Shown here piece by piece: positions 30,015-64,000 of a stretch of 64,000 nucleotides of DNA; position 1 is the stretch's first letter; the number at the start of each line of letters is the position of its first letter. Both the position numbers and the translations under genes were made by a program. This DNA is from Schmidtea nova. Lineage: Eukaryota. Under the pieces are notes generated by a model, which was given only the letters and a program-made list of their open reading frames with translations, was not told where the DNA came from and searched no databases. Location of the stretch: the NCBI GenBank assembly GCA_044892505.1, contig CM097883.1, positions 351,726,001 through 351,790,000 on the forward strand. The letters are read 5' to 3'.

Positions 30015-30830
30015 NNNNNNNNNNNNNNNNNNNNNNNNNNNNNNNNNNNNNNNNNNNNNNNNNNNNNNNNNNNNNNNNNNNNNNNNNNNNNNNNNNNNNN
30101 NNNNNNNNNNNNNNNNNNNNNNNNNNNNNNNNNNNNNNNNNNNNNNNNNNNNNNNNNNNNNNNNNNNNNNNNNNNNNNNNNNNNNNNNNNNNNNNNNNNN
30201 NNNNNNNNNNNNNNNNNNNNNNNNNNNNNNNNNNNNNNNNNNNNNNNNNNNNNNNNNNNNNNNNNNNNNNNNNNNNNNNNNNNNNNNNNNNNNNNNNNNN
30301 NNNNNNNNNNNNNNNNNNNNNNNNNNNNNNNNNNNNNNNNNNNNNNNNNNNNNNNNNNNNNNNNNNNNNNNNNNNNNNNNNNNNNNNNNNNNNNNNNNNN
30401 NNNNNNNNNNNNNNNNNNNNNNNNNNNNNNNNNNNNNNNNNNNNNNNNTAAGTAACAAAATAAGCCTTTGCTGCAAAAGGCTTTATTTTGTTACTTATTT
30501 ATTAATTAATTTAATACTTAATGCTGCNNNNNNNNNNNNNNNNNNNNNNNNNNNNNNNNNNNNNNNNNNNNNNNNNNNNNNNNNNNNNNNNNNNNNNNNN
30601 NNNNNNNNNNNNNNNNNNNNNNNNNNNNNNNNNNNNNNNNNNNNNNNNNNNNNNNNNNNNNNNNNNNNNNNNNNNNNNNNNNNNNNNNNNNNNNNNNNNN
30701 NNNNNNAACTAAATAAGCCATTGCTGCAAAAAATTTTATTAAGTGAAAATTTTGGATTAAAAAGAGATTGATGAGGATTATTTATCATAAAATTACTTTT
30801 TAATGATGTTTATAGTCATTTGTATTGCAG

Positions 30831-34860: not shown

Positions 34861-36840
34861 ATTTCCAATCAAGTCATTTTATAACAATTTATATTTTATA
34901 TATACTTTATTACAATGAAAACGCAATAAAATTGTTTTAAATAGGTGAAAAATAAATGTTTTAATACAAAACCGGTATGCAACACGAAGTACAACAACTT
35001 TCAAATTTCTAATCAAACCAATTTAATGAAAATTAAATTTTACACTTAGAATATAACAGTAAAAATTCAATAAAGTTACTGTATATATGTGAAATATACA
35101 AACTTTAATACAAAACACGCATACATCACAAAATTCGCCAAATTTCTAATCAAGTCATTTTTTAACAATTTAAATATTATGTATACATTATTACAATAAA
35201 AACTCAGTAAAGTTAATTTAAATGAGCCAAAAATATAAATTTTAAAATTAAACACGTGTCTAACACGAAATACAGCAACTTTTAAATTTTAAATCAAACC
35301 ATTTTATCAAAAATTAAATTTTATGTCTAATATTACAATGAAAACTCAATAAAGTTACTTTAGAGAGCTTTAAAATGCTAAAATTAATAACAAAACACGT
35401 GTGCAACACGAAAACTTGCAACTTTCAAATTTCTAATCAAGTCATTTTCTAGTAAATTTTACTTTTAAATTTAAACTTTAACTTTTAAATTTTAAATCAA
35501 ACCATTTTATCAAAAATTAAACTTTTAAATTTTAAATCAAACCATTTTATCAAAAATTAAATTTTATGTCTAATATTACAATGAAAACTCAATAAAGTTA
35601 CTTTAGAGAGCTTTAAAATGCAAAAATTAATAACAAAACACGTCTGCAACACTAAACACGACAGCTTTCAGATTTCTAATCAAGCCATTATATAGAAAAT
35701 TAAATTTAACCTATATGTAATTACAATGAAAAGTTACTTTAGATAGCTTAAAATGCTAAACTTAATTACAAACACGTGTGCATTACAAACACACCAACAA
35801 ACCAAATTTTAAATCAAGCAATTTATAGAAATTTAAATTTTATATATACTTTATTGCAATGAAAACTCAATAAAGTTATTTTAATTAGCTAAAACTTACA
35901 AAATTAATAACAAAACACGTGTGCATCACAAAATAAGACAACTTTCAGATTTCTAATCAAGCCATTTTGTAGAAAATTAAATTTTATCTCTACAATATTA
36001 CAATGAAAACTTATTAAAGTTACTTTATATAGACGAAATATGGAAATTTAAGTACAAAACATGTGTGTGTATTAAAACACAGCAACAAACCAAATTTTTT
36101 AATCAAGACATTTTATAGAAAATTAAATTTTACTTATACTTTATTACAATGAAAACTCACTAAAGTTAAAAAGATAACTTAAAATGCTAAAATTAATAAC
36201 AAAACACGTGTGTAACTCGAAAAAACGACAACTTTTAGATTTTGAATCAAGCCATTTTATAGGAAATTAAATTTTACTTATACTTTATTACAATGAAAAA
36301 TCAATAAATTTATTTTATATACATGAAAAATGCAAAATTAATTACAAAACATGTGTGTATTAAAAACACGCCAACAAACTAATTTTCTAATCAAGCCATT
36401 TTATAGGAAATTATTTTTTATCTATACTTTATTACAATGAAAAATACATAAAGTTACTTTATATTGTTAAAAATTTGAAAATTAAAAATAAAACAGGTGT
36501 GCAACACTAAATACGACAACTTTCAAATTTCTAATAAGGCCATTTTATAGAAAATTAAATTTTATCTATAGTTTATTACAATCAAAACTCAATAAAGTTA
36601 CTTTAAAAAACTTAAAATCCTAGAATTAATAACAAAACGCGTGTGCAACACTAAATACGACAAATTTCAGATTTCTAATAAAGCCATTTTATAGAAAATT
36701 AAATTTTATCTATACTTTATTACAATGAAAACTCAAAAAAATTACTTTATTTAGGTAAATATATACAAATTTAATTACAAAACACGTGTGCACAACAATA
36801 TACACAACATTTTGAAATTTTAATCAAGCCATTTTACGTA
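34861..36840. repeat. Tandem satellite, ~120-bp unit, ~16 diverged copies
   Basis: Recurring aaaacacgtgtgcaacac...aatcaagccatttt...ttattacaatgaaaactcaataaagtt; one unit is inverted at 36993-37112. Confidence 0.9.
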
Positions 36841-38779: not shown

Positions 38780-39277
38780 CGATTTGAAAAAGCACTTATA
38801 ATATTCGAAAATTATGATCTAAATCACCCTTTGTACAGTAGGAATCTTGATTCTGTCATCGGCAAGTTCAAAGACGAGAATAAAATGCTTAGGTACGAAG
38901 TGTTGGTGTTTCTTAGACCTAAATGTTAAAGTCTTTTAGATGATGACGAAACTAAAAAAGGTAAGGGGGTAACATTGTAGGGTATTGACATAAAGCATTA
39001 GTCGTACTTGGACTGTTTTAATAATAACCAAATATTTTCTGTTCCCTAAACGAGAATCAGAAGTAAAAATCACCAACTTTTTACTATTAAAAATGAAAAG
39101 ACTGCACTGACAAACGCAGATGATAAAAGTAAATGGGTTGCGAAAAATAAAAGCTTGGCATATGGCCATTATATGGGAGGTGACTTGGTTATATTTCAAC
39201 ATACCGATGCCAGAATCAATCCAGATCAACAATACCAAGATCCAACTGGAGATATCCAAGATGAAAGTTTTATTTAA
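38780..39277 (+). pseudogene. Polinton pPolB C-terminal remnant (copy 3)
   Basis: NYDLNHPLYSRNLDSVIGKFKDE...LRPKC*...KKGKGV...RSKNHQLFTIKNEKTALTNADDKSKWVAKNKSLAYGHY. Confidence 0.82.
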
Positions 39278-40593: not shown

Positions 40594-42258
40594 ATACATA
40601 ATTCAAAGGTCAGTATGATAGTCATATAAAGGGTCCAAGGTTCAAATTTTTAAACTATATGATACTTATATCAAATATAAGATAATTGAAAGATGAGTAT
40701 CATACCCGAGATGATGTGTATGTGTCTGAAAAAACTTTCTATCACTATTTTATAAAATTTCATACCCCAATTTAAACAAGGACATTGCAATGCAGATGCA
40801 ACCTAACCAAGACATTCCAATGTCATTGCAACTTAACCAAGACATTGCAATGTCAATGCAACTTAACAAAGAAGCCAAGCCAAATTAATAAAGATATGTA
40901 GCACACAATAACTTATAAAATTTTAAACACCATAATAATAATAACTTCCTTATTTAATAATAATAACACCATAATAATAATAACACCATAATAATAATAA
41001 AAAAAACAGACAAAAATAATAAAAACTTAGAAAAATATATTAATAATAACTTAAAAGACATATAATGTAATACAATCAACAATTGCAGCAATAAAGAGGA
41101 CCATTTTTTTTACTTTCACAAATCTTTTTTCCTTTCTGTTTTTTTTCAATAACTTTTCGATTTTGTTTTTCAATATCGTTTTGATTCTGTTTTCCTTTTT
41201 CATCATCTAAATCTTTAAAAACGTAAAAATCACAATATTAAATTTAATTGATTGCGAAATTTTTTATACAATCGTGAATTGTAAGCCTGATATGGGCCGA
41301 TTGTTCATTCGCAATTTTTCTTTTGATTTTTTTGTTTCTTTTTTTGATTATCTTTATTTCGCAATCATCTAAAATAATCATGTTCCAGAGGCGCATAAAA
41401 TGCATAAGGCTCTTCATCCATCGGCACGATCGGGACATCATCTATTTGTTGTTGGATTGAATCATCATCGAGTTGTTGTTCTGGTGGATCACCTACAAAT
41501 ATATTGGTGTCACTCCCTCTATATTGACGATATGCCAAACTTTTATTTTTATCAATCCAATTACGCTTGTCGTCCTTACAATTCAAGGACATCTAAATAT
41601 TTTTTATACTGAATAACTGGTGGTTCTTACTAGTTATTCTAAACTGGGGGACAGTATATATTTTATTATTTAAATAACAATCAAGATACGACTGATGTGT
41701 TAGTCCAGTATCTTTAATGTTAATCCCCTTAGCTTTCATACTTGCCTCATCACTCATTAAACCATAACACTTAGGGCTTAAGAACATCCACTCTTTGAAC
41801 TTTTCAATGACAGAATCAAGGTTCCTAATCTATTAAGAATGATTTAGGTCATACTTCGAAGTCTCAAGAATATTGTCCCTAACCATCACCAGTAAGAGTA
41901 TATCTAACGAAAGACTTTTAATATCCAAAAAGAAGGAATCAATGTTTCCCAGCAACGATATTAATTTCACAGTTGAAGTCGTCACGCTATTTTTGCAACT
42001 CTTCATACTGCAGCTGGTACATACTAAGTTTGGATAAATCTAGTAATGTTTGACCAATGTAACTAGGTCTATCAAAACACACTGATTCCTTCTTTAACAA
42101 AACAGAAATCAAGTCATTATCTATTTTAGTGGTTGTTGGAACATTAATTAATTATTCAACACAATTATTTTAAAAACAATATTTTAAACAAATTGATTTG
42201 TTTAAATATGATGTGAGAGATAAAAATAAAACTTTTAAATTAAACGCGTGTTTCTTTT

Positions 42259-44526: not shown

Positions 44527-45256
44527 GGGGGAGTTGTGTTGGAACATTAATTAATTATTCAACACAATTATTTTAAAAACAATATTTTAAACAAATTGAT
44601 TTGTTTAAATATGATGTGAGAGATAAAAATAAAACTTTTAAATTAAACGCGTGTTTCTTTTATGAATCTTATAGTGGTTTTATGGAAAGTCGGTTTGGAG
44701 TAGTAAGTCATTAACTTCTGTGATGAATTGCATAAACGCAAATTTATACATTTTTTAAGATTTTCAACAGTCTTGCCCTAAAGACTGTTGTTAAGTAATT
44801 TATAAAAGTTAATTAATTTGTCGATGCTGCTCGTAACGCCGTATTTGTATTGATATAATTTTGAAAAATTTTATCTTGTATGAATTTTATTGCTCGATGT
44901 GTTTTTGATATTTTAACATCTAATTTAATAAACAGTTGCAGAAGCTTCCAATGAAGAACGTAGTTTCTCTTTGGATAATGCATAAGTAGCAGCTTCTCAA
45001 CTTTCGAACCTGGTGCACACATCTTTTCAGCGGCAACTAGAAGATCATCCAGTTTGTCGTGAATTGACGTCGGTATTTCTAAATCCAATTCTATGGTATA
45101 ACCATAATGAAGTACATCTAAATCTACCGGTATGCACTCAACAATTATATCATTTAATAAGTGGACATCTGTGACCCATTCAAAGTAACTGCATGGTAAA
45201 GGTTGACTTAAAGCCCAACCATATAAATTATTTCTATCTATGTAAACTTTACATTT

Positions 45257-45521
45257 ACTTTAACTCTCTAATTGAGCTCCTTACCGATATGGAGATGTAT
45301 AACTTTTTCGAGGGCGGTATCCGTGGCGGATTACCTTTTGTAAATAAACACTATGTAAAAACAGGCCCGGATACCGCATTGCTTTACAACGTAAAGCAAT
45401 GCGGTATCCGGGCCTGTTTTTACATAGTGTTTATTTACAAAAGGTAATCCGCCACGGATACCGCCCTCGAAAAAGTTATACATCTCCATATCGGTAAGGA
45501 GCTCAATTGGAGAGTTAAAGT
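45257..45521. repeat. Near-perfect 265-bp palindrome (131-bp arms, 3-nt loop) inside pPolB
   Basis: Arms 45257-45387 / 45391-45521 with one mismatch; loop aac. Confidence 0.95.
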
Positions 45522-48500
45522 TAATAATGAGGAATACCAAGATATACCTTTAATTCCTAAGAAATTTAATGGTTCTAGTCGGTTATAAACAATGACCTTA
45601 GCTCTAAATTGCTGGAAATAATCAGGTAAAAGGAAAAAATCTAGTTTTAAATAAACCATCATGTAATCAAAAATCGAAGTACATGAGGTTTCACGCCAAA
45701 TTCTCTTAACTGTCTCATATTCAGCTGGCTTCACGCCTTTCCAAATAGGAGGTAACTGGCGAATATTTTGTAAAACTTCTAAAGAAGTCGATGTGTCATA
45801 TGGAAAAAATCCCTTTGCTGTTATTATTTTACCCTGAGATTCAGATTCGATCAAAAGTAAAGACGATAAAGTTTTGACAGCATTATATAAAGACTCGCTG
45901 ATAAATTGATAAGAGTCTATGAATATAACAATTAAGGAGTCAATCCTAGCAAAAAGACTAAGGAAGTTCTCGCTTGTCAAAGGAATACAACTAATATTCC
46001 AGGAATGGTATTTGGAAAGGCCAAATTTCAGAATGTGATGTAGATCATAACCCTTTAAATTATGAAAAATGACAGGTAGGGTATGTCTAATTTGCCTTGA
46101 GATATTGCAAGCTTTGCAAGCTGCGCCAAGAAATAGACCGATAAAATGTTCATTGTCCCTAACTGGATAAACTAAAGGTTTATTGCACAAATAACATGAT
46201 GCGCTCTTTTCAAAATCTAATTTTTGAGCGTCGGTAATTATAATTTTCTTCTGATAATTTTTATAAAAAAACGGCGTCACTTATGTTTACTAATCAATTC
46301 AATTTCATTAAGAAATTGATCGACGCAATCTAAACCGAAGAAAAATTTATAAATTTTTACACCGGTAAAATCATTAATAAGAAGCAAACCAGCAGAAATA
46401 GGCAAGTGACGTTGAAAGTAACAAGCCTCAAAGTCAGCGTAAATAACAAAGGGAGGAGTGACGGTTTTCTTCCAATCAGTAAATTCGAGGTATTTGTTTT
46501 TGGACATTGTGTATAAGGTAGTACTCAGCTGATTTTTATCACAAAGACCCCTATGTCTATTAAAAGACTCATCATTCCTAAAACCGTTTAAACACCTAGG
46601 ACACCACTGGCTACAAATCCTAACAGGAGTGATTGAACTATTCCTACAATTAAGGAATCTATTTAGATCTGTGATTGCGCCATGGTGCTAATTATTCTTA
46701 TTTTCAATCAATAATTAATTTATAGGTATTCATCCTACTACCTTACTTCGGTAAATTATATCAATAAAAGCATCTTCATCAGAAATGTCTATCTGCTTTT
46801 AGTCATAAGTAAGCACATTAATACTATAACCGGGATTTTGATGTTCAAATTTACTTATATTTGACAGTTTCATCGGCATATTATTGGGGTAAAATTAAGT
46901 TGAGAAAGATCGTAGGAAGTAGGACGATTTCTATATTGCCTATTTACACTTTCATAGTTAATAATTGATAGGAAACTGTACAAGAAACAATAATGGTCAT
47001 TATTAACTACATTTATAAGAAAGCTTAAACTTTTTAATGATTTTGGGGTTTCAATAAAACTATTGCCACTTAACCGACTTATTTCGGAAAATTTAGTGAG
47101 AACGAAGCTTATGTACTCGATTTTATTGATAGTCCAATTACTACCTTTTTCATTTAATTGAAGTGTTGAGGTTCCGAGAATCTCAACTTGATGTTTCTTA
47201 AATAAATAAAAAAATAAGACTGATTCTTTTCAAAGACTATTTATTTATAACAATTACAAATTTGATAAAAATAAACAATAACCTAAAGGATAATAATTTT
47301 TAGTTATTTTGTATTTATATGTATGTGTGTAAGTGCTTGCAGTTTCCTGAGCTCGAATGTAAAGATTTTGTACGCTCGATTTTAATTTACAAATCGTTTA
47401 CCGAATTTGTAATTCTTCTTAACTGTGTAAGATTTTAATGGTGGTTTGACTGAAAAATCAGTCAGTTTATATACTAAATTTTAAGGCACTTAATCTGTCA
47501 ATAATGATTGTTATTTTGCCTCTTGAGTTGATTGAAATTATTTTGAAAATAGAGTGGTTTTCAAAACAGAATTGTTTTCAAAATTATTTTTTAACTTTGG
47601 GATATTATTTCATTTTTCTTACTTTTGTAGGTCATAAATATAATTTCTTTAAACAAACAGTAATTTATTTATTTTTAATTTATTAAAACAATCTGTATTA
47701 TTTATTTATTTTATTATTATTATTATAATTTATTGAATTAAAATATTAAAATATAAATGAAAATATAATCCATATTCAAAAAATTAATTTACATAAAATA
47801 TTTTCAAAACAAAATATTCTTTCAAAATTATATCAAATTTTGTCCATCACCATAAAAAATGTCAATAAAAGTTTACATGATCACAAATGATAAATTGTCA
47901 AAAGATAAAAAAGATTGTTATATACATCACAAAACTGAATGAATTTGTCACACAAATAGGATTTTCAAAAGATAAAATAGATTGAATAAAAAAAAGATAT
48001 AATAAATTTGTCACATAATAAAATTGTCAAGAGATAGAATAGATTGTTATTTGAATCACGAGGCTGAATGAGTTTGTGCCAAAATAGGATTGTCTAAAGA
48101 TAAAATAGATTATTGTCTGAATTCCATCTTTTCATCGGGAGGGATCTTGTTAGATGATGTGTCTATGTGTATGTTTAGCCTATATCTATTTGTTCCTATG
48201 CTATAGTCTTCATCTAACTCAAATTTATTTACAAAGAAATTTAATTTATTTAACAAAATGTCCGGCACTGAGACCGTTTTTAATTCTAAATTTGTGACAT
48301 CGAGTTTAATTATAACATAGTTGTCGTTCAAGTCCATATTAACTTCGACTAACCCATGTCCAATTTGAATATTTAATAAATTATTTATTTGGGTGTTTTC
48401 CTGATTACTGATGATGATAATTTCTTTATCATCACTGATGGTAATTATATCGTTAATAATATCTTCCTCATCACTGATGTCGATAATTTGTATTTAAGTA

Positions 48501-48778
48501 GGAACTGATTCCATATTATTTATATTAGTGTTATGTGTGTTATTGATGTTACATAAATTATTGTTGTTATTACATAGAGATGTTATATCTCTAAATGAAT
48601 TAACTAATTTATATAAATAAATTACCACGATTCGGAAATAATAATTCTAATAATAAATCAATAAATTACAATATTCAAAAATCTCTATTTTACAACACAA
48701 TATTCAAACAATATTCTAATAATTATAATATTAAACGAATTTGTAATATTATTAATTCACATATAACATTCCCCCGTC

Positions 48779-51700
48779 TTATTCGGCTCTCAACTCGAAA
48801 TCGTCGTATAATCTCGGCTTCACATTTCTATTGTGTCTTTTCGGGTATCTTCCTGTGGTCTCTTTATTCTCTTCCGTTGACGTTGCTTCGTTAACCTCTT
48901 CCAATCTCTCCGATTCCTTTGTTCTTGACCATATACTTGTTCCCCAACTGTCCGTCTCTATCTTTGCTATTTCTGATCTTTCTGGGATAATCTTAATCTG
49001 GTTAAAATTACGCTGTATTATCTTCCCATCAGCCTCGCTTCTTAATTTAAAAGTCCAATCATTTACTTTCTCCAGTATTTCATATGGGCCGCAGTATTTC
49101 TCCCCAAATCCTTGTTTCTGAACTACTTTTACTAATGCCGAATCTCCTATTTTGACGTCTTTATTCCATCTATTTCGATTGTAAATCTTTTCGTTATATA
49201 CTCTCACTTTATCAGTTCTCTTTTTTACTTCCTCTTCTATGTTCGTTAACTCTGTTCTCAGTTTTCTCATGAATTCTCCGTAGTCTTGTGGTCCTATTAT
49301 GTCGCTTGTTTCTTCTCTTACTTTTGGTGTTCTGCCGAACATTAATTCTATCGGTTTATATCCAGTACTTTTATGGACTGTGTTCCTTACTCCATATTCT
49401 ACCGTGTGTACTGTTGAATCCCATTCCTTCGTCTTCCTGTCGAACATGGTCGCTGCCATCATACTTTTTGCTGTTTGGAACATTCTTTCGATTAAGCCGT
49501 CAGATTGTGGGTAGTACGGTGATGTACAGGTTTTCTTTGTTCCTATCAGACTGCACAAACCCTTAAACATATTTGACTCAAAATTCTTTCCCTGATCTGA
49601 GTGAATCCTTTCTGGTATACCGAATTTTGTGATCCATTCTTCCCATATTGCTCTAGCCACTGCTTCTGTCGTAATTTCTGGGAGTGGTATTAGACATGGA
49701 TATTTTGTGAAGTAGTCAATTAATCCCAGAATGTATCTATTTCCTTTTCTTGTAATTGGAAAAGGTCCGGTAATGTCTATTCCCAAAATTTCTAAAGGTC
49801 TACTGCTTATAAAACTCTGTAGTGGTGCTCTAACTCTTCCGTTTATATACTTGTTGTGTTGACAGGCTATACATCGGTTTACTCTATCTATAACGTTCTC
49901 GTTGATATTTGGCCAATAGTATCTTTCTTTGGCTGCTCTCGTAGTTCTTTCAATGCCAACATGTCCCAATTCCCGATGTAACTCGTCAATATATCTATTT
50001 CTTTCTTCTTCTGGTAGTATTTTCCTATGTCCTTCTGCTTTCTTAATCTTAAGATTTCCTTCACTGACATACATAAGCTCCGCTTTTCTCCATAGTTCTA
50101 AGTTTTTCCGGTTTTGTTCTTTTCTCCCTTGCTGTATCCAATCGATTATTTGCCTAACTTCTGAATCCGTCTTCGTATTTATCTGACATATAATTCTTTC
50201 TGACTTGTTCTCTTCTGTAGAAGTGTTTTCTTCCTCGTAAACTTTTACATTTCGTTTCTTTCTTGGGTCCGCGTGTTTCAGTCGGCATTGTTCGCATGGT
50301 GTAATTCTTGACAATGCATCCGCATTGCAATGGTCTTTCCCTTTTCTAAATTCCACTTTCATGTCATATATTTCTAGCTCTGCTTTCCATACACAATATT
50401 GAGAGGTGTTTGGGCTACTCCAATCTAATAACCATTTAAGTGCTTGATGATCTGTTCTTACTGTGAACTTTTTACCTACTAAATAATACTTGTATTTTAA
50501 TACAAATGTATAAATTGCCAAAAGTTCCTTGCGTGTGATACAGTATTTCCTCTGCGTTTTCGTCATAGTCTTCGATCCATACGCAATAACTCTCTCCTTC
50601 CCATCTTGGATTTGAGACAGGACGGCCCCTATTGAATCGTTAGACGCGTCTGTGTCTAAAACGTAGTATCCATCTGTAGTTGGTAATGCTAATATTGGCG
50701 GTGATAGTAAAGCCTGTCTTAATCTCTCGAACGATCCTTGTCTTTCCTCCGTCCATTCAAATTTGTTTTCTGTTCGAAGCATTTCGTTTAAAGGTTCTGT
50801 CGTCTTAGCGTAGCCTTTAATGAAGTTTCTGTAATATCCCGTCATCCCTAAAAATGTCCTTAACTCTTTCTGACACATTGGCTTCTTATATTCTCTTATC
50901 GCTTTGGTTTTGTCTGGGTCCGTCTGTACTCCTTCTTCGTTTATAATGTGTCCCAAATATCTTACCTCGTTTTTTAGCAAGTGGCATTTCTCCGGTGATA
51001 ATTTTAGTCCCGCTTCTCTCATCTTTTGTAGTACTCTATCTAATATTTCGTTGTGCTCTTCAATTGTTTTTCCGAATACCAGAATATCGTCCAAATATAT
51101 CACACAGTTAGTCCAGTTCTCTCCTCTTAAGACTACGTTCATTATTCTTTGAAATGTTGCTTGTGCGGCACACAATCCGAATGGCATTCTTGTGAACTCG
51201 TATTGGCCAAATCTCGTGCTGAATGCTGTTTTCCTTATATCCTCTTCTGCGATTGGAATTTGATAGTATCCACTGGACATATCTAATGTGGAAAAGAATT
51301 TCGCGTTTCCGATCGTATCAAAGACTTCGTTTGCTGATGGTATTGGAAATATTGCTCTTTCTGTTTTTGCATTTAAAGCTCTGTAGTCGATGCACATTCT
51401 CATATCCCCATTCTTTTTTTTTTGTTACCACTATGGGAAAGTTCCATGGTGAATTGCTTTCTCTAATAATTCCCGCTTCTTCCAATTCTGTAATGTATCT
51501 TCTCACATCTTCCTCCAATCCCCTTGGTATCCTTCTATGTTTGAATGCTATCGGTGTTGTTTTCCCCGTTTCTATAGTGTGTTGTCCCACATTTGTCTTT
51601 CCAATATCCATTTTGTAACTACTGAATACATCTTTGTTCCGCCATAAAATTTGTGAAATCTTCTGTTTTTCTGTTATTGTTAATCTATCGTCTAGTTTGT

Positions 51701-52148
51701 TTATCAACCCTTTCACAATTTTGTCTATACTTCTCTTTTCTTTGTTTTGGTCGATTGTTGACAATTTCATCAATGTGTTATTTTTTCCCTCTTTGTCCGT
51801 CCATTCTTCCACTTCTCCCAGTGTTGTTCCTGTATGTAGACTTTTCACTCCTCCTTCCTGCATATTAATTCGGACCCAAATCAATCCCTCGGAACATGTT
51901 GCTAGTCCATCTGCTACCAGTATACCTCTTTCCTCCATCTTGTTCTTGTTTCCTGTAAATAAACAATTAGTTACGTCTTCCTTTATCCTTTCGTTCTCCT
52001 TATCTACTATCATCCCTTTGATCCAATACTCTCCCTCTCCTTTCAATGTCACATTTTCTGCTACCACTACTTTTCTCGTTTCTTCTTCCGTCCCTTTAAC
52101 TATTCTTCCCACTCCTGGACGCCTGGGAGTGGTCTTTAACAGTTTAAA
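48779..52148 (-). CDS. pol: Gypsy Pol (linker, RT, RNase H, integrase); one extra A in an A10 run at ~51414-51423 splits it
   Basis: SPWNFP, DYRALN, MPFGL, YLDD, DTDASN, TDHQAL, ADALSR, HRELGH..CIACQ, GIDITGP, HSDQGKNFES, PQSDGLIER, GPY. Confidence 0.92.
52089..52148 (-). promoter_or_regulatory. Predicted -1 ribosomal frameshift signal (U UUA AAC + H-type pseudoknot)
   Basis: Heptamer 52148-52142 is in phase with ORF1; 9-nt spacer; stem1 CCACUCC/GGAGUGG; stem2 CGUCC/GGACG; next ORF is in the -1 frame. Confidence 0.75.
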
Positions 52149-53773
52149 GACGATGGTATCGATGTCTTGGATAGAAATGGAATTTGAATACCCTTTACCT
52201 CGATACAGTCTTCTGCCGGTTTCATTATTACTCCCAGTTCTTTCATGCATCTGAGTCCGATATACGCATGTGGGAATACCCCGTTTATTATTTCGAATTT
52301 GTGTTTGGTCGTCCTTGGACCCAAACTCAGTGACAATACTAATTGTCCTCGGCTTTTTCCTTTACTTCCATCTGCGTACGCTACTCTAACGTTTGAATCC
52401 CTGACTTCTATTGTCGAATCTCGTTGTATTATTTTCTCTGCCAGTTCCTCACTAATGACATTCAGATCTGCTCCCGTATCGAATAGTGCTTTAACTTCTT
52501 CTCCTTGGATTTTGCAACAAATGATTGGCTTGTTGGTTGCCCTTTCCGATCGTCTTTGCGATATTACTGTTGTGGCTTTTTTTATATATTTTTCCTTTGG
52601 TTTGTCGCCATTACCTCCGATAAACTGTGCCCACTTCTCTTCCATTGTTAGCTTACTTTTCTTTGTCTTTTTTACTTTTTGTGTAATCGCTTTCATAATT
52701 CGTTCTGATGGGTCGTCTTCTTCGTATTCGCTATCTGAACTTGTCCCTTGTACGGATACTTCTTCTAATTGTCGTACTCTTCTATAATCGTCCCTCTTGT
52801 TTGGGCATTCTCTACTTATATGACCCTTTCTATTACAATTAAAACATGTTACCTTTTCTCGATACTCTCGGCAATTGCTCGATATATGTCCTGTTTTCTT
52901 GCATCGGAAGCATCTTTCGTTCTTCTTTTCTTCGCAGAAACGTGCAATATGACCGGTTTTGCCGCAATTGTAACATTCCACTTGTTGTCCATTGTGGAAT
53001 TCTTTTCTACTTCTATCTTGGTTATTCGGTTCTTTTAAACTTTTTATAATTTCCTGAAGTCTCTTAATCTCTTCTCTTAATTCTTGTAACTCCAATGTGG
53101 CATTTTTATCTACCCGCATTTGCCTAGCATTGTTGTTTCCTTTCGCTTTATTAATTCCTTTCCCGTCTCTCCATGCATTATAGCTCTCTTCTCGTAGTTG
53201 TGATAATCTGTATTCTGGAATTATTTCTTTCTGGTCATCTTCTTCCTTTATTAGTTCGACAGCTTCTTCTATGGTTTTGGGCCGCAATATTTTCAATGTC
53301 TTTCTCATGATTTCACTTTTTAAACCTTCTCTAAAGATCATTAATTCTATTCTGTTTCGATCTTCTTTTGTGTCTTTCGTCGTTCTTTTTACCCGTCTAC
53401 TGAAATCTACTATCGTCTCTCCTTCGTCCTGTTTGGTCGATAGAAAAATTCTAACCTTCTTGGCTCTTGACTCCTTTATTGGGAACATTTCTGTTAATGT
53501 TTTTGTGTACCACTCTACTGAGTTGTTTTCTTCTCCATACGTACTTTTTGATTCCACCTCGAATAAGATTTCTGGATCAAAATATCTTCTTAATAATCGG
53601 ACTTTGTAAGCCTCTTCCATCTCAAACATCGCCAAAAAGGATGTTATATTCTCGAGATGTGTCCTCACATCCCTTTTACACTTCCTTGTGTATAGATATA
53701 GGGATCCCTCTATCTCTTGTGCCAATAAATTTTTGACAAAAGAATTGTCAAACGTAACTGCTCGTGACGCCAT
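52136..53773 (-). CDS. gag: Gypsy Gag-protease polyprotein (3 CCHC knuckles, aspartic protease)
   Basis: CYNCGKTGHIARFC, CFRCKKTGHISSNC, CFNCNRKGHISREC; ALFDTGADLNVI; 545-aa open frame. Confidence 0.92.
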   Translation of the reverse strand: MASRAVTFDNSFVKNLLAQEIEGSLYLYTRKCKRDVRTHLENITSFLAMFEMEEAYKVRLLRRYFDPEILFEVESKSTYGEENNSVEWYTKTLTEMFPIKESRAKKVRIFLSTKQDEGETIVDFSRRVKRTTKDTKEDRNRIELMIFREGLKSEIMRKTLKILRPKTIEEAVELIKEEDDQKEIIPEYRLSQLREESYNAWRDGKGINKAKGNNNARQMRVDKNATLELQELREEIKRLQEIIKSLKEPNNQDRSRKEFHNGQQVECYNCGKTGHIARFCEEKKNERCFRCKKTGHISSNCREYREKVTCFNCNRKGHISRECPNKRDDYRRVRQLEEVSVQGTSSDSEYEEDDPSERIMKAITQKVKKTKKSKLTMEEKWAQFIGGNGDKPKEKYIKKATTVISQRRSERATNKPIICCKIQGEEVKALFDTGADLNVISEELAEKIIQRDSTIEVRDSNVRVAYADGSKGKSRGQLVLSLSLGPRTTKHKFEIINGVFPHAYIGLRCMKELGVIMKPAEDCIEVKGIQIPFLSKTSIPSSLNC

Positions 53774-54929
53774 GTTATATCTCTAAATGAATTAACTAAT
53801 TTATATAAATAAATTACCACGATTCGGAAAAAATAATTCTAATAATAAATCAATAAATTACAATATTCAAAAATCTCTATTTTACAACACAATATTCAAA
53901 CAATATTCTAATAATTATAATATTAAACGAATTTGTAATATTATTAATTCACATATAACAAGAGACATTATTATTTAAGGATTCATTATTAATTTTATTG
54001 TTATTATTTAAGGATACATTATTTATTTGATTGTTTTCAACAAAATTATTGTGTTCAGTATTGTTGATGTAATTTGGATATAAACTATTAAATAGTGATT
54101 TTTTAAAGGTTTATATTGGGTCAGATGGGTCTTGTGGCTATAAAAAATTCGTTATAAGCTATATTTTTATTAATTTTACAAGTAGGGCAGAGGAGGTGAG
54201 TGACACAATTTTATTTATAGGAATAGTAGTTTTCCATAATGACATGGCAGTCATTAAGTAAACTACTATTACAAAAAAATTTTATATATCGAGCCTGAAT
54301 AAATTAAATAATTTAATAAACAAATACATGATATAATAAAATAAATATATATCATTTTAAAATAATTAAATTTATCTTCATAAAATATGACAAATAATTT
54401 TTGAATCACAATTTACATAATAATAATAAATGTTCATAAAGATTTCCATTATAATTTATTAATAAAGATTTTCCTAAAACTTTTCATAATAAATATACCA
54501 TTTATAATTCGCAATAAAGAATTTGATAAAATTATTCGTTATAAATATTCATAAAATCATTCGGTATAAATATTCCTAAAATTTTCCATGTTAATCTATT
54601 CTCAAAGTAATTTCGTCATAAAACTTTTATTAATAATACATATTCCTAAAAGTTTACATAAAACCATAAAAAGAAATAGGTTATCAACATAATCTTTATC
54701 ATATATTTACAACATAGATTTTTTCGTCATAAAATAATATATTTTCATTAAAATATTTTCTTAAATTATTTTCATCATAGAATATATTTTTAATAACTAA
54801 AATACTTTCCTCGCAATATTAGTTATAAAAATAATATTTTTTAATATCCATAAACCTTTTATGAACTGTTTATCTTTAACATAATATGTAATGGTTCAAC
54901 AAACAATTACTTATTAGTATATTCGGAAA

Positions 54930-56090
54930 GTAACAAATCAATTTATTGTGCTCCTTGTCGATTGTTAGGAGGTGGTGGATAGGCCCTGGCAACAACAGGT
55001 TATTCTGATTAGAAAAATGTAACAGAATGTTTATCTCAGCACGAAAATACATCACAACACAGACAGTTAGAAACAGTTCTAAAGCAGCGATTATTAGGAG
55101 ACTCTGCGTCAAATGTGAATGAACTATTAAATTCAGAAACTCTAAAGGAAAAAAATACCATCTTGTACCTGTGTTAACATAGCGCCAACTGCGACGTCGG
55201 ACGCATCTGTGGTTAGACTTAAGGGCAGAGAATACTTTGGATAAGCCAAAGTCTGAATTGATTCAAGTGCTTTTTTAGCTTCGATGAACGCAGCGTCAGA
55301 TTTCTCTGTCTAATTTATAATAGATCGCTTTGATCCCGAATGAGCGAAGTCAAAGGAGCAAGAATATCAGATATCCTAAGTATGAACCTGTGGCAATAAT
55401 TGACTACGCCTATAAAGCTGCGAAGCTGCGTGACAGTTTTTTGTTTTAGAAAAATTTCTGATGGAATTTAAACTTTCAGTTTGTGGATCTATTCCATCAG
55501 CGGATAAGGTGTGTCCCAGAAATTTTACACTTGATTGAAAGAATTGACATTTGGAACGATTTATCTTGAGTTGATGTCGCTCTAAGATTTTAACGAGTTT
55601 ATGTGTTTCGGCATCAAGCGATGCGACTAGGATGTCGTCGACGTAGGCTGCTACATAATCTAGTCCGGATAATATGTGATCGATGTGTCGCTGGAATGTT
55701 TGTGCAGCGTTCCGCAAACCAAAAGGAATTCGCAGGATTTTGAAGAGACCTATAGAAGTGATGACAACTGTTTTTGCACATCGGATAGAGTGACAGGAAT
55801 TAAGTGGTATGTCTTCGCCAGATCGATTGTAGAGAATATTTCGTTACCTATGAATCTGGCTAACGAATCCTTTATAAGAGGCGTTGTATATGATTCGTGG
55901 TGTGTGGTGGTATTTAAACGACGGTAGTCGCCACATATCTTGAAAGAACCGTCTTTCTTAGGGACGAAATGGATCGGAGAGGCCCAATGCGAAGAAGATC
56001 TTTGGATCACTTCTACTTGTAATATTCTGTTTTCAGAAATGTCAATTTTTCTCCGGAGATCGGGCGCAATCTCTCTCTGAGAGGTGGTGA
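54930..56090 (-). mobile_element. Decayed Gypsy RT/RNase H remnant
   Basis: WASPIHFVPKKDG...CGDYRRLN, FGLRNAAQTFQR, YVDDIL, TTDASDVAVGA. Confidence 0.88.
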
Positions 56091-56397
56091 ATTCAGAGTA
56101 AGGATTTGATGATAGAATAAAATAAATTTAACAACAAGAAAAGTATATTTTTTAAACTTCAGTATATTTTAAACAAACGTATTTTTCTCAACAGTTTTTA
56201 ATAAACTATTTCTCTAAAAGTTTTATTTTCTTTTCTTCTTTATTTATATAACGAAATATAATACAACTAATATAATATAAATATTACATTTAGTAATATA
56301 TAAATTGTATCACCACAATACATTTTGGGCAAAGGTAATCTTGTCCTTCATACTATTCCAATCGATCATAAATACCAGCCCAGAATGGTAAATCTGT

Positions 56398-56667
56398 TTA
56401 AATATAACACTTTGGTTTAAAAATATTACTGACATTCATTATACATAATTCTTTAATAATTGTTCCTCCAATTTTATTATAACCGTAAATTGATTTACAA
56501 AATTGATCTTGAATAATTCCATGTTCATCATCCGCACCCCTATACCAATAAATTTTATTAAACTTTGACTTGAATAATTTTGACTGTAGCAATTTACAAA
56601 CAAATAATGTTTTTTCATTCCCGCTAGGGCCAACAATTTGAAACCTTGCATCATTTCTTAATTCCAT
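56398..56667 (-). pseudogene. Polinton A32-like packaging ATPase N-terminal remnant
   Basis: MELRNDARFQIVGPSGNEKTLFVCKLL...KIYWYRG; degenerate Walker A (GPSGSGKT-like); truncated. Confidence 0.72.
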
Positions 56668-56758
56668 ATTTCTATTTTTATTAATTTATTAATATTGTTT
56701 ATATTTGTTTTAAATAATAATTTTCATTACCATTATCCTATTTAAAAAATTCCCATTA

Positions 56759-57184
56759 ATGATTAGCAACATAAATTATAAGGGTAAGACTGATGCATCT
56801 CACATGAATTTTCCAAAGGGCAAACCTCATCAAATCATTGATAGAAGTGGGAAATATCCGATAATATATTTTAAGGCCGCGAGATTTAGAATTGTGGGAT
56901 GTAAGCAATTTATTAGCGATGAAAAAGTAAAGATTTATGGTTTAACAATTCAATCGATTACTGTAACGGCAAACTTGGGATTTGATTGTAAATTAAATGA
57001 TTTGGCTAAATTAATAGAATGTGTTTACTAACCAGAATTATTTCGAGTTTTGAGATATATAAAATATAACCCCATGTGTGTAAATATATTTTCAAGTGGT
57101 AAAGTAGTTATATTAGTTTTAAAAAATAGGTACTATTTAAATATAGCTGATAATATTATTAATGATGTAAAATTAATTATTTAA
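56759..57184 (+). pseudogene. Divergent TATA-binding-protein (TBP)-like gene, one premature stop
   Basis: Reading through TAA at 57029: IQSITVTANLG...Y*PELFRVLRYIKYNPMCVNIFSSGKVVIL (cf. TBP YEPELFPGLIYRM..P..VLLIFVSGKVVL); weaker first repeat YPIIYFKAARFRIVGCK. Confidence 0.72.
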
Positions 57185-57410
57185 GATAAAGCCTTTGTTG
57201 ATTTCATATTATCGTGCGACTCGTGTTTGCAAAAAACCTGCAATATAAATGCACGATTCTGATTGGTTCAGTGTGTATTTATTGAATAAATACTTGTTAT
57301 GCATATTCGACTCTGATTGATTGAATTTATGTATCATTTTCTTGTCTATTACTTTGGTATATATCAAATGAACATTTTTCAATCATTTATAATTTACAAT
57401 GTGTCTAAAA

Positions 57411-58701
57411 TCAACTTAAGTGAAATATAGTAGTTTTTAATTTATTATTTTTCATTATAATAATATCTATTTTTAAGATAAATTGATGTCCGTAGTTCAC
57501 TAGACTGTTCCACCGTGTCTTTGTATCTAAAATTAAAACCTTATCTTCCTGTTGACAGCTTTCTCTAATATACATTTGCAAAATACTGTCATTCTTTGTT
57601 GGCGAATTTCTAAAGATTTTAACGATTTTGCGTATTTTAGTCCGAATAGGTTTAGCAGCGTTACATATGTCTAAGTCTAACCCATTAGGGATTCCTTCAT
57701 CCAAATCACTTTCAGCAGTATCGTTAAGTTCCAATTCATCTTCGCTTCCAAGATTATTTGAGTCCGATCTATATGCTTCTATTTCATCGTTTTGAGTATT
57801 CTTGGGTACTCTTTGGTTTGAGTATTTATTTTTTTATAAAGTATATCTATTACTGCTAATTGTATGTCATGAGCAAAACATAGCTTTTGGTAGTTGGATA
57901 CTAATGAACCTACCTTCAACATCACTCTAGCACCATCCGTAGTCATGCAAACGATGTTTTTTTCTAAATTAATATTGAAATCCTGGAGTTTAGTTTTTAC
58001 TATTATGTTACATTTTTCCGCAGGCATGCTTCCATGAATCCTTACCATCCCTAAACTACAATATTTCGTTTCAGTTATCTTAGGTTCAACAGCGTAATGA
58101 ATATTAATATTAATGTAACGACGGTTTCGTTTTGAAGTCCACTCATCAAATGTAATGCTTACTCCTCCTACTTGTAGTATGGATTTAAGTTCCTTAATCA
58201 AGTTATATTTTATTTTCTCGTAATAACCAACTACAATACTGCGTATTGTGTGAGGTGACTTAGGAATATTTTCGAAACCTCTTGCTGTGAGGGATTTTCT
58301 TAGATCATATGATGAGCAAAATATTCTAAAAGGAAGTCCATCTACTGATGTCAAACGCGCAAGAACAGCAGGTATTGTGTTGTCAATTTTAATCTTTGCC
58401 GTTAGATATGATGTAATTTTCCTTTTGGTATCGCTAATATCTACTCTTTTTAACTGATTTTCCTCGTCTGTTTGTTGATCTAAAATTAATGTTCTCTTCT
58501 GACAATCAATTTTATGTATTTTATTCAAGTGCGTATATGCAGTCCTTTGGTAGACCCCCCAGCTATTTTTAGTATACTCGGACACAACTTACATCTAGCG
58601 GTTTTAGGAGTACTTCCTTGTTCTCGCAAAAAATGTTTCTAAATCGCGGATTCGCTTTCTTATTCCCACTCAATGTATTTTGTAGCTGATTTCGATGCCA
58701 T
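57411..58701 (-). pseudogene. hAT-family transposase pseudogene (BED finger + catalytic region, C-terminus lost)
   Basis: AI*KHFLRE...ARCKLC...HLNKIH; ITFDEWTS; TTDGARVM; CFAHDIQLAV; TRWNS. Confidence 0.88.
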
Positions 58702-59739: not shown

Positions 59740-60307
59740 AGAAAGGTCGGTGAAAAATTGTTACGATAATAACCGACGTGATCGTAAGGTCGGTGAGAGC
59801 ATAGTGAAAATATTGAATAATTGGAAAATTGTTACGAGATTACCCGACGTGATAGAAAGGTCGGTGAAAAATTGTTACGATAATAACCGACGTGATCTAA
59901 AGGTCGGTGAAGGAGTGAATCAAAGAAAAGAAGAGATAATTTGCTATAGAAAATTGAATTTGATAAGTAAAGAAAACGATATTAAGTGACTTAATTGAAA
60001 AGTCAGTGAGAAAAGTGTTGAAAAGTAAAATTGAATAATTGTAAAAAGAGAAAATAAAATTTGAAAAGTAAAGAAAACGAGATTAATTGTTGAAGAAAAT
60101 AAAAGTGAAAATAATTGTATCAGTTGAAATAAAAGAGTAAAAAGCTTGAACAGAAAAGAGAGAATCGATAAAAATCCAATTGCCAATAATCAAGTCAAAA
60201 TTAAAACAAAAGGTAAATTTAAAAATTGTAATACTTTAAAATTTAGACGAGAAAAAGTTGTACAAAAGAAATCTTATAATCTTCGAAATAAGAAACAAGT
60301 GGAAAAT

Positions 60308-62446
60308 ATGGCTAGTAATTCAAATAATAATGATCAAATACCCATGTCTACTACTCCCACAAACAATGGTAGTGATTTTGCAAGCTGTCAGAAATTGCCA
60401 GTAGAGCAATACGGAGGAGACCCAATTGATTTTGTTGATTTCATGGCAGATTACTATATGTACGCGACAGCATACGGATGGAGCCAATCAATTATGGTAC
60501 AAAGGTTACCGGTATATTTGAAAGGTGCAGCACGAGAAGCTTGGCAACAGATCGACAAAAGACTTATCGCAAATGATTGGACAAAGCTAAAAGATGCATT
60601 GGCAGCCAAGTTAATTGGTGGCGATATCAAAAGAATAATGCGCCAAAAATTTTACAACCGAGTACAAAAGTCAAATGAATCGGTAAGTGAGTTTGCTTAT
60701 CATTTAACAACTCTTGCAGAAAAAGCCTTTGAAGCGAAACCAGAACAACCTGATGTGACGAAACAAGTGAAAGAATTACTTCAAGATCAATTTCTGTCAG
60801 GAGTAAAAAGAGAGATCAAAAAAGCCCTGTGTTATGTAGATTTCAACAATTTCGATGAATTGATTAAAAAGGCCATGAAGATTGAATTGAATCTCAAAAC
60901 CACACAACAGACAGCCGAATCCTTTGCAATTGTAAATGAAACGAGAGATGAATCAGTAACTCCAGTTAGAGAGACTCTTTTGCAAAAATCAACAAGTCCA
61001 TCACCAAAGTTTAGAGTGAAATTCGAGCCAAGAAAGTCGTCAAACAGCCCAAATGAAGAAAGAGAAAGGCCAATTCAATGTAGTTATTGTAAAAGATTGG
61101 GACATCAAGTAAATCAATGTTGGTTTAAAAACAGCGCTCGAAGAAGCCCAAGTCCTGTTCAGTGTGATAATTGCCAACGAAAAGGGCACAGTAATAGTCA
61201 ATGTTGGTTTAAAAATAATTCGCAACGGAGTCCAAGAAAGATGTGGCCAGATTGGTTGAAAGACAATGTCGAGAAAACCTTCAAGAGAAGGGGCAACATT
61301 GATCAAAGAGCTAGTGATAATATGCAGTGCTATAATTGTGGAAGGAAAGGCCATACTTCACGAAATTGCTTTGCAAGATCGAGATCTCCGTCAACATCAC
61401 CATCACCACAGAGAGATAGAGTAAATCTCCAAGGACAAATTCAATGCCACTCATGCAGAGGAAATGGACACATGGCTAGATCATGCCCAAAGAATAATGA
61501 AAAATTTCAAAGACCTATATTAAAGAAAATCAGATTTCAAAATGATAAATCAAAATTTGATAATGTGGCTTTTGTACAACCCGATGATGCTAACGAAAGA
61601 ATTGAAAAAGAGATAAAGCAAATGGGTAAACGATTGGATAAATTAATGTGTAAATTTGAATCGGACGAAGAAACTGATAACCATATGATGTATGAAACGC
61701 AATCAGAAGGGTCAGAGACAGATATAATGAAGGAAGTAGTAAATGATGAATTAGAAACCGAAAAAATAAAAATGATTTTGTCGAGAACAAAAATTTTAAT
61801 GGAGTCAAAAGTAAAAGAGACGTCAAAAATAATGACAATGCTAAAGAAATTGAGTCAAATGCCGATGAGTATACAAAATTTAAAAAGTGTAATTGAAATT
61901 TGTGCTGAATATCACAATGAGAATTCAAAAGATAAAACTGAAACTGAGAAAATAATGAAAATATTTGGAAAATTGTTCAGAGAGAAAACATGGTTAGATT
62001 TTATTGTTATTGATGTTGTTGATGAAAGTAATAATGATGTGATGTGCATTCGTTGTGAAATAGGAGAGTGCGTAAAGGAATTTAAAAAGAGATTAGAGGA
62101 AAATAGTGGAAAATGGATAAAGGAAGTAAAATTTAAAAATAGATGTTTAAATGACGAGGAAATATTAATAGATTGTGGTATTACACCTGAAAATAAAAAC
62201 AGAGTACAGATAGTATTTATGATTAGAAATAATGAAATAATAAAAGATTATTCACAGAAAATTTGTAGGGAATTAAAAGATATTTTGTGTAAAGGGGATG
62301 CAAATGAAATTATTAGAAAATTAAAATTGATAGAAGAAATTGAAATTGAGAGAGATATTAAATTAGATATTATAGATGCAATAAGGCCACACATGTATGA
62401 AAAATCTAAATATAAAGAAAATTTAAGAAATTTAGTACGACGATAA
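60308..62446 (+). CDS. gag: Retrotransposon Gag with 4 CCHC knuckles and a C-terminal extension containing a ubiquitin-like domain
   Basis: YGGDPIDF..F...Y...ATAYGW...LPVYLKGAAREAW; QKSNESVSEFAYHL; four CX2CX4HX4C; open from 60146, first ATG at 60308. Confidence 0.88.
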   Translation: MASNSNNNDQIPMSTTPTNNGSDFASCQKLPVEQYGGDPIDFVDFMADYYMYATAYGWSQSIMVQRLPVYLKGAAREAWQQIDKRLIANDWTKLKDALAAKLIGGDIKRIMRQKFYNRVQKSNESVSEFAYHLTTLAEKAFEAKPEQPDVTKQVKELLQDQFLSGVKREIKKALCYVDFNNFDELIKKAMKIELNLKTTQQTAESFAIVNETRDESVTPVRETLLQKSTSPSPKFRVKFEPRKSSNSPNEERERPIQCSYCKRLGHQVNQCWFKNSARRSPSPVQCDNCQRKGHSNSQCWFKNNSQRSPRKMWPDWLKDNVEKTFKRRGNIDQRASDNMQCYNCGRKGHTSRNCFARSRSPSTSPSPQRDRVNLQGQIQCHSCRGNGHMARSCPKNNEKFQRPILKKIRFQNDKSKFDNVAFVQPDDANERIEKEIKQMGKRLDKLMCKFESDEETDNHMMYETQSEGSETDIMKEVVNDELETEKIKMILSRTKILMESKVKETSKIMTMLKKLSQMPMSIQNLKSVIEICAEYHNENSKDKTETEKIMKIFGKLFREKTWLDFIVIDVVDESNNDVMCIRCEIGECVKEFKKRLEENSGKWIKEVKFKNRCLNDEEILIDCGITPENKNRVQIVFMIRNNEIIKDYSQKICRELKDILCKGDANEIIRKLKLIEEIEIERDIKLDIIDAIRPHMYEKSKYKENLRNLVRR

Positions 62447-64000
62447 GCAAAGAACTTAGAAAGACTACAATTGAATTGAATCCGTTTACAATAGCATTAG
62501 ATTACGAAGATTATGGTAAAACTGAATATATAGTAGAGCATTGGTGCACAAAAGTTCGGAAATTAAGAAAAAGAGCTGCTGAAAGAATAGGAAAAGATGG
62601 AATTATTATATTTATGTTTAAAAGAGAAAAATTAGATGATGATGAATATTTATTTGATTTTGGATTTGTTCCACAAGAGTTAGATGAAAATGGATATTTA
62701 CGTTTCGATAGTAGAAATGGATATTTGATAAATTGTGTATCGGTGATTAAGGAACAGAAATTTGAATTAATAGACAAATCTGATGGATCAAATACAGACA
62801 GAGAAAATGATGATGAAAATGAGGTTAAAGAAGATAAAGAGATAAACGAAATGGTAAATGATAACGAGGAAACCAAGCAGAATAATAAAGATGAGTATAA
62901 AGTAACAAAAATAGAGGAATTTGAGGAACTTAAAGGCGAAATGAATAATGAAAGTAATATTAAGAAGCCTAGAACCTTATATGAAATAAAGAAAGGTTTA
63001 GTGCGATTGGAACAAGAAGTAGATAAAACCAAAGCATTATTAAAAAGCTTGACTAAAGCAGTATACCCAATGTGTGAAATTGAGATAGATGGAAAATATG
63101 AATTGGGAGGAATAGTAAATGAAGTGAGAAACAGACTCCCTAGCATCATGCGAAGGTTTGGTAAAAATGAAAAATTTTGTGACAAAGATGTAATCGAGAA
63201 ATTAACTAAAAATGGAATTACTACAGAAGTAACATTAATGAGCTTAACTTATGTAATTTTAGAAATTGGTGCTCATAAGATCATGAAATCAGATGAGTTA
63301 GAAAATTTAATAGATACTGCTGCTCGAAATATAAACGAATACTTAATGAGCTGGGTTAAAAAGATTGGAGGTTGGGACAAGTTGATGAAAATGTTTATAA
63401 TAAATGAAAACGAAAGTAATGAAGAAAGTTTACCTCAACAATCGCTAAATGTCAGAGTTAGTCCAGAAAAGAGGAAGACAATACTGTTTCCTTGGGCAAT
63501 CTTTATGATAATTATTTTGTGTGCTGGAATCACACAGGTAACGAGTATGACAACGTATGACTGTTCAAAAACAGAAATGGGGAAAATTTATTCAGTTGTA
63601 GATATGTCAGAGTGTTCAGACGCATATCCAAGAAAATTAAAGATAGAAAATGATGTGAAATATCATGTATATCAAGAATCTGATTTACGACGAACAACGG
63701 TAAGAGAATGTATAGTTAAGCGCACTTCCTTTATATTTTATTGTGGCAAGTGGAGCCATACTTCAATGATAAAAATGTATACAATCCTACGGCCAGTAGA
63801 GGTAATGCCGGAAAATTGCCTCGCTGCTTTTCAAACAGGAGAATTAAAAATAAATTCGGAAATTAAATTAAAAGCAAAGCGAAATCATAGAATTAGAGAA
63901 ACAGTGGTCGTAAAAGGAGTAATGAAACAAGATGGAGATTGTGAAGGAGAACCATACAAAGTAGATGGGAAGATAATCAAACAGTCTGTAGTAATAGAGG
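62416..64000 (+). CDS. ORF2 (runs off the window; absent from the ORF track): Ubl - acidic/coiled-coil - Bcl-2-like - hydrophobic signal/anchor - chuvirus-like glycoprotein
   Basis: Manual translation is stop-free from 62416 to 64000, in the -1 frame relative to gag; WVKKIGGWDKL; FPWAIFMIIILCAGI; YDCS...ECIVKRTSFIFYCGKWSHTS...CLAAFQTGEL...GDCEGEPY. Confidence 0.85.

Follow-up and report, generated by a model that had tools for sequence, protein, structure and literature searches.

The window, a stretch of 64,000 nt of Schmidtea nova DNA, contains an interrupted reading frame resembling a TATA-binding protein (TBP), placed head-to-head with the start of a Polinton-type packaging ATPase gene. 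The locus raises the question whether a Polinton lineage carries a miniature TBP of its own and, if so, which promoters such a protein would serve.

The relic in the window and its intact relatives

The TBP-like frame (56759-57181, + strand) comprises 141 codons with an in-frame stop at codon 91 (57029-57031), and ends at a further stop (57182-57184). Frame and interruption were as described in the initial annotation, but position 57182 marks another nonsense change and not the natural end. As the ORF of the family is 155 aa long, both stops reflect decay of what is a mini-TBP pseudogene (56759-57226, +). Its identification as a TBP homolog was borne out, the scores being well outside chance expectation: with an X at the break, the frame matched Pfam TBP (PF00352; E=1.4e-10, 41.3 bits, cut-off 22.9), and in the PDB the best 29 of the 35 sequences matched at E≤10 were TBPs (best E=4e-10). 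A family copy scored 55 bits against PF00352 (same cut-off, 22.9), the matches of both copies covering the second repeat only. The window TBP is 83% identical to a family copy over 155 aa (homology 56759-57223) and departs from the family at five near-invariant columns.

The divergent start codon of an A32-like ATPase, also part of the initial annotation, was found at 56667 (−), separated from the TBP start by a 91-bp spacer (56668-56758); the 89-aa minus-strand ORF behind it (56398-56667), however, is a deletion chimera. Only 56494-56667, the 5′ 58 codons, belong to the ATPase, the rest of which was lost through an internal deletion. Fused to this stub is a fragment of an orf148-type gene (56308-56493, −; 77% DNA identity to a related subfamily), which lies several kb distant in intact elements; the integrase, capsid, and protease genes located between the two are missing. 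All 39 other DNA matches start at 56494, and the join is unique to the window copy among the 40 matches listed. The spacer contains an eight-base box, TATAAACA (56696-56703, −; first base 36 nt 5′ of the ATPase ATG), which is a candidate late core promoter, and a TTGTTTTA motif (56705-56712, +) 5′ of the TBP ATG, common to part of the family. Downstream of the TBP, element DNA (57227-57497, +) reaches approximately the start of orf172, where the relic ends. Polinton homology at this locus is thus limited to ∼56308-57497 (∼1.2 kb), lacks element ends, and is bounded by unrelated flanks, on the left a retrotransposon reverse-transcriptase fragment (55379-56127, −; RVT_1 E=2.7e-14 and 0.011) and on the right a transposase fragment which we take to be hAT-like (57498-58588, −; DUF659 E=7.9e-5, below cut-off). 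As a dead pseudogene, the window copy is incapable of the function proposed below.

Elsewhere in the window, many more decayed Polinton pieces, with integrase, major capsid, pPolB, or SSB-like sequence 45-80% identical to the family at the protein level, were found at 16-615, 3937-5582, 9970-10690, 20636-21118, 38810-39229, 41461-42133, and 44676-47151; a pPolB relic contains a 135-nt near-perfect inverted duplication (45253-45525). The window also holds an LTR retrotransposon (48580-53960; 189-nt direct repeats, 99% identical, and long gag/pol frames), a gag-like, zinc-knuckle ORF and, behind it, a long ORF running off the window (together 60128-63999, +), the end of which presumably encodes a viral glycoprotein-like segment, two similar intronless ORFs (15437-16306 and 30816-31688, +), which we take for seven-transmembrane receptor genes, and a diverged 144-bp tandem satellite (34862-36812).

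Searching the genome with the window protein returned at least 150 matches of 81-84% identity. Of the 150 listed, 149 were without a stop, in a list ordered by likeness, which favors unbroken copies. Five loci were retrieved with 20 kb on each side, and element ends were examined in four: the elements were 16.6-18.3 kb long, and all four carried AGTAGT...ACTACT termini, long inverted repeats, and 6-bp target duplications, one being inserted inside a simple repeat. Their proteins matched DNA_pol_B_2 (E=3e-16), rve (E=2.6e-8), and Pox_A32 (E=2.2e-6), and the major capsid protein matched DJR-like_dom below the cut-off (E=1.3e-4); minor capsid protein and protease are presumed from position and characteristic motifs, no profile having matched them. 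The gene order is pPolB, orf148, protease-like frame, major capsid, orf121, minor capsid, integrase, orf180, and ATPase, followed on the opposite strand by TBP, orf172, and orf138, the product of which weakly resembles phage Enc34/T7-type SSB in fold (best E=0.019). Among 13 element proteins or parts scanned against Pfam, none matched the TFIIB family at E≤0.5, nor any family of the herpesvirus six-subunit complex. The family, the subfamilies of which share 54-89% identity in S. nova, places a miniature TBP in Polintons with pPolB, integrase, ATPase, and putative capsid genes, as had been suggested.

The compact head-to-head layout was found at 29/30 TBP-selected, 30/30 ATPase-selected, and 13/15 divergence-picked S. 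nova loci, with spacers of 81-124 bp in the other copies, and the TBP gene often adjoins those for the ATPase and the SSB-like protein. The layout is local to S. nova copies: none of the 26 metagenome loci holding both genes showed it, most being in tandem, so that it was rejected as a hallmark of the family.

At one integrase position next to a catalytic motif, a GT-AG intron of 38-44 nt is predicted from sequence in 13/13 S. nova matches found (L040, about 8135-8180, −; further loci L032, L038, L050, L137, L141, L142, L144, L146, L148, L149, and L151), which points to nuclear Pol II transcription. Four contig runs from one study, their kind unrecorded, cover the stretch; none of the listed joints falls at the intron, which leaves them silent either way. 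A conserved programmed frameshift in the integrase was considered and discarded, as the apparent split came from a two-part query; all 16 metagenome relatives read through in a single frame, without an intron.

Relatives also exist outside this genome. A single-sequence protein search yielded 74 proteins, 64 of them of the short type, and an alignment search yielded 1505 at E≤1e-10, probably including cellular TBPs; none of the best 120 of these 1505 had an NCBI or UniRef source. The metagenome contigs yielded 100 confirmed loci, of which 80 were retained; one IMG/VR locus brought the total to 81. At least one Polinton core gene was present at 38 of the 81 loci, and at 30 of the 38 loci of at least 3 kb; this linkage extended down to ∼30% identity, and 3 of the 81 were ordinary full-length TBPs. 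Scanning IMG/VR with the TBP alignment gave one locus, a full-length TBP, and scans there for close TBP-less relatives, with the ATPase, an ATPase alignment, and a capsid alignment, found no relative. A protein atlas returned TBP clusters only.

Fold, residues, and ancestry of the mini-TBP

The 155-aa protein was modeled from 59 sequences with a pLDDT of 94 and a pTM of 0.83. In the model, residues 1-60 form strands and no helices, followed by a complete second repeat; the convex face carries two helices, both of the second repeat, versus four in TBP. The best Foldseek matches in the PDB were all TBPs, structural alignment to TBPs gave Z-scores of 10-12 (rmsd 2.4-3.2) for ∼140 residues over both repeats, and profile-profile comparison to TBP reached 98.9% over 131 columns. 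As modeled, the protein is shown to be a two-repeat TBP saddle sheet without the first-repeat helices.

The residues were compared among 137 aligned database relatives. Three of the four intercalating Phe columns are kept (in 133, 137, and 136 of 137), and the fourth, tentatively assigned by alignment and residue numbering, is mostly Lys, Pro, or Ser. The Val, Val, Asn, Ile, Val, and Leu of the cellular DNA face are replaced by Asn, Arg, Ser, Arg, Cys, and Asn in 127-136 of 137, with the qualifications that the register around one gap differs between PDB and profile-profile alignments and that the assignment of columns to the DNA face is partly our assumption. The columns of yeast I194, V203, and L205 are Arg, Cys, and Asn in the family, and yeast TBP mutated at these three residues is retargeted to TGTA, according to excerpts of PMC1636458. 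Both stirrup positions that bind TFIIB (C.L3.2 and C.L3.4) are acidic in 137/137. TBP and TFIIB are a textbook, DNA-dependent pair, and the mini-TBP, keeping the contact residues, is predicted to bind TFIIB as well. These acidic residues are described as contacting TFIIB and as having diverged in other viral TBPs (excerpts of PMC7221094).

Several Polinton-linked TBPs are longer. L119, L128, and L130 appear to keep the first-repeat helices. L097, L101, L110, and L112 have sequence at the helix positions, as judged from the alignment and not from folding; most of the DNA-face changes are present in these four, and the box before their ATPase is mostly CATAAAC. All of these longer TBPs are candidate intermediates. 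That these apparently helix-bearing relatives share most of the changes suggests that the DNA face was altered before the first-repeat helices were lost.

Among nine subfamily copies, the TBP had a median dN/dS of 0.17 (0.09-0.27; 30 of 36 pairs, the six saturated ones being dropped) and the ATPase one of 0.06 (28 pairs), which shows that the mini-TBP is under purifying selection. The host itself has full-length TBP-family genes in four places and one disrupted duplicate. In a tree of 88 rows (with a random draw of 20 from the 137 database relatives; bootstrap incompletely settled), a branch of length 1.24 and support 99/96 set 45 Polinton-type rows, and with them an IMG/VR row of very great length, apart from 42 full-length rows. 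Among these 42 were the four TBP-family rows of the host and 28 cellular TBPs, and of nine IMG/VR TBPs, eight fell on the cellular side. L135 and L136, two divergent host genes of the TBP family whose long frames are free of interruptions, formed a long branch of their own.

An intronless gene, the window copy of which is a pseudogene, might be explained as a retrocopy of host TBP, or as a passenger without function picked up by a single transposon. This explanation is opposed by the 99/96 branch that parts the 45 Polinton-type rows from the four host rows and 28 cellular TBPs, by the dN/dS of 0.17, and by a metagenome linkage to Polintons that persists in distant relatives. Unless long-branch artefacts hide a host origin, linkage, selection, and tree rule out a retrocopy, and we give this explanation a negligible chance. 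Each outcome that would have spoken against a Polinton TBP was looked into, namely, absence of a TBP fold, copies unlinked to Polinton genes, and clustering within host TBP retrocopies: the fold was that of TBPs (pLDDT 94, Z ∼12), copies were linked to Polinton core genes in S. nova and in metagenomes, and the family lay outside the host TBPs.

A candidate promoter box and its possible reader

The box was first seen by eye in upstream regions and then counted in the same data, in a zone from −80 to −10 of the ATG, after removal of near-duplicates and with start codons assigned by a heuristic. Counted in this way, ATAAAC occurred 5′ of the ATPase gene in 22/22 cases (44 before near-duplicate removal; shuffled mean 1.7, maximum 5), of the major capsid gene in 7/9, integrase in 8/16, orf148 in 4/6, orf180 in 2/4, penton in 2/5, orf121 in 1/4, and pPolB in 1/1. 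It preceded the TBP gene in 3/46, orf138 in 3/14, and orf172 in 0/6 cases, and is absent or distant for several genes. The background in the window was 72 of 1756 70-nt bins. At the 51 box sites, the preceding base was T (30) or C (18) and the following base A (44) or G (7), yielding YATAAACR, and in 31 of the 51 the box started 30-44 nt 5′ of the ATG. Where the box lies inside upstream coding regions, its conservation may be owed to protein constraint. The canonical TATAWAW was found 5′ of 22 of 46 TBP genes (shuffled mean 9.2, maximum 15), the remaining 24 being without it, and of 9 of 14 orf138 genes (shuffled mean 2.5, maximum 7). The TTGTTTTA motif occurred in 11/46 TBP upstream regions (shuffled mean 0.9); in many metagenome TBP genes, a motif of this type lies ∼45-65 nt before the ATG, largely in promoters without a canonical TATA.

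A second S. nova Polinton group served as TBP-less control. ATAAAC was found 5′ of 0/42 of its genes at the ten loci examined; TBP matches at three of the ten all adjoined a first-family ATPase and represent neighboring insertions. The control is one distant lineage and, because its copies are related, amounts to about one independent case. In this group (L206-L225), the integrase is fused to a PLA2-like domain, and the start of all but one of the 42 genes reads AAAATG, TAAATG, or TATAATG, which may be an AT-rich start context or a poxvirus-like late promoter. With neither TBP nor box in the second group, S. nova may harbor Polintons that differ in their strategy of expression.

The box could also be a host forkhead-type site or the polyadenylation signal of the upstream gene, the TBP-fold protein being a DNA-bending factor for replication or packaging. 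The forkhead consensus accommodates ATAAACA, variants of the polyadenylation signal resemble TATAAA and CATAAA, and the TBP gene's frequent place beside the ATPase and SSB-like genes would suit such a factor. At the ATPase, however, the box is strictly oriented (reverse 0/22), GTAAAC occurs in 1/22, and the spacing from the ATG peaks as given above. In S. nova, moreover, the upstream neighbor of the ATPase gene is the TBP gene, which lies on the opposite strand and points away, so that no transcript should end 5′ of the ATPase; a packaging role would also leave the conservation of the TFIIB-contact residues unexplained. We regard this explanation as very improbable.

Transcription control by the Polinton TBP, already proposed in the initial annotation, is what we infer from these sequences, and the matching promoter box now supports it. 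In the reading that we favor (probability about 0.6), the mini-TBP is a late-gene TBP of altered specificity, predicted to bind YATAAACR, where it would bring in TFIIB and Pol II of the host. Host TBP would start the early genes, including those for the viral TBP and the SSB-like protein, often behind ordinary TATA boxes. The viral TBP would then bind YATAAACR, a box that the C at position 7 and the frequent C at position 1 would weaken for host TBP, and would recruit host TFIIB via its kept stirrup, whereby the packaging, capsid, and integrase genes would be switched on with host RNA polymerase II. Loss of the first-repeat helices would free the viral TBP from the regulators of host TBP. That a widespread Polinton lineage performs a complete early-to-late switch in this manner, by one TBP of ∼150 residues that ignores host regulators and borrows TFIIB and Pol II, we consider an even bet.

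Host TBP might instead read the box (e.g., CATAAACA) as a weak TATA after genome amplification, the viral TBP being a general, regulation-resistant substitute that boosts all element promoters and has no specificity of its own. Partial acceptance of variant boxes by host TBP is indeed on record: it keeps 27% activity on TATAAACG in plant protoplasts (Table 4 of PMC10005294), and PDB 1qn3 is a complex of wild-type TBP with a C(-25) variant box. EBV BcRF1 binds TATA and TATT alike in vitro (excerpts of PMC4893493), so that an altered DNA face does not by itself imply exclusive specificity. Absence of the first-repeat helices would fit escape from regulators such as Mot1/BTAF1, and escape from TBP regulators has been argued for viral TBPs (excerpts of PMC7221094). 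A weak TATA would nevertheless leave the near-invariant polar replacements on the DNA face and the strict C at position 7 unexplained, and helix-bearing relatives share both the altered residues and the box. On balance, such a general substitute is unlikely.

The mini-TBP could, lastly, be a repressor or decoy that occupies TATA-like sites or soaks up TFIIB and thereby shuts off early element or host genes. The kept TFIIB-binding acidic pair and the absent first-repeat helices are consistent with such a function, and TTGTTTTA 5′ of many TBP genes could serve autoregulation. Activation, however, better accounts for a dedicated box in fixed orientation before the morphogenesis genes, and the copies, at least 150 with nearly all listed frames open, persist in the host. 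We therefore hold repression to be improbable and retain the late-gene TBP as the preferred explanation.

Comparison with known systems

Within the literature searched, which did not extend to subscription journals and Repbase, no description of a Polinton mini-TBP family or of a YATAAACR box was found. The one prior record found in print is a figure-legend label: "TBP" appears in the legend to Fig. 5 of PMC8502044 (MELD viruses), is not discussed in section 3.4 of that paper or named in its supplement text, and may or may not denote the same family. The vertebrate Maverick core genes given in excerpts of PMC8097293 do not include TBP, and PMC11296320 and bioRxiv 10.64898/2026.10.13.758929 contain no promoter or TATA passage.

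If the late-gene reading is true, no viral late-transcription system smaller than the one centered on the Polinton TBP would be known. It would be independent of the solutions of herpesviruses and giant viruses, with helix-bearing intermediates still alive, and would provide genomic evidence for a staged nuclear program of virion building by Polintons. This bears on the expression of Polinton capsid genes and on whether it can proceed without a helper virus. The family would also be a natural experiment on TBP, revealing which of its surfaces can be dispensed with and by what changes a DNA-binding face famous for its conservation acquires a new target. With 150 or more copies in its genome, S. 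nova is a host in which a self-encoded promoter factor and its presumed box are directly testable.

The elements themselves resemble the Polintons/Mavericks/adintoviruses, with which they share (AGT)2 termini, terminal inverted repeats, 6-bp target duplications, a length of ∼17 kb, and genes for pPolB, an integrase with chromodomain, ATPase, and, putatively, capsids and protease (excerpts of PMC8097293 and PMC8502044); AGTAGT-type termini are the commonest Maverick type (excerpts of PMC8097293). With cellular TBP (PF00352; e.g., PDB 1ytb, 1cdw, and 2z8u), the Polinton TBP shares the saddle fold, the complete second repeat, three of four Phe, and the acidic stirrup. It differs in being encoded by a mobile element, in its size of 145-155 aa, in its polar DNA face, in the loss of one Phe position, and, in this subclade, in lacking the first-repeat helices.

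Among viral proteins, the TBPs of giant viruses (Nucleocytoviricota) gave the best BFVD matches; they share the viral TBP fold and a first-lobe regulatory surface that is not conserved (excerpts of PMC7221094). Their TFIIB-contact positions have diverged and many of these viruses encode a TFIIB (same excerpts), whereas in the Polinton family the acidic pair is invariant and no TFIIB was matched among the element proteins scanned. The herpesvirus TBPs (EBV BcRF1, KSHV ORF24, and CMV UL87) would work in a similar way, with a viral TBP fold, a polar-rich DNA face, a TATA variant before structural genes, and host Pol II (excerpts of PMC4893493 and PMC12529657), and score weakly in a fold search with the Polinton TBP (E 0.014-0.055). 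They act in a six-protein complex, whereas the Polinton TBP is a stand-alone minimal domain, and KSHV ORF24 has been modeled as incompatible with TFIIB (excerpts of PMC12529657), whereas the Polinton TBP keeps the TFIIB contacts. Herpesvirus late promoters carry TATT, with the variant base at position 4, and the Polinton box is YATAAACR, with the variant base at position 7. The Polinton TBP would hence be an analog of the herpesvirus TATT-binding factors and not one of them.
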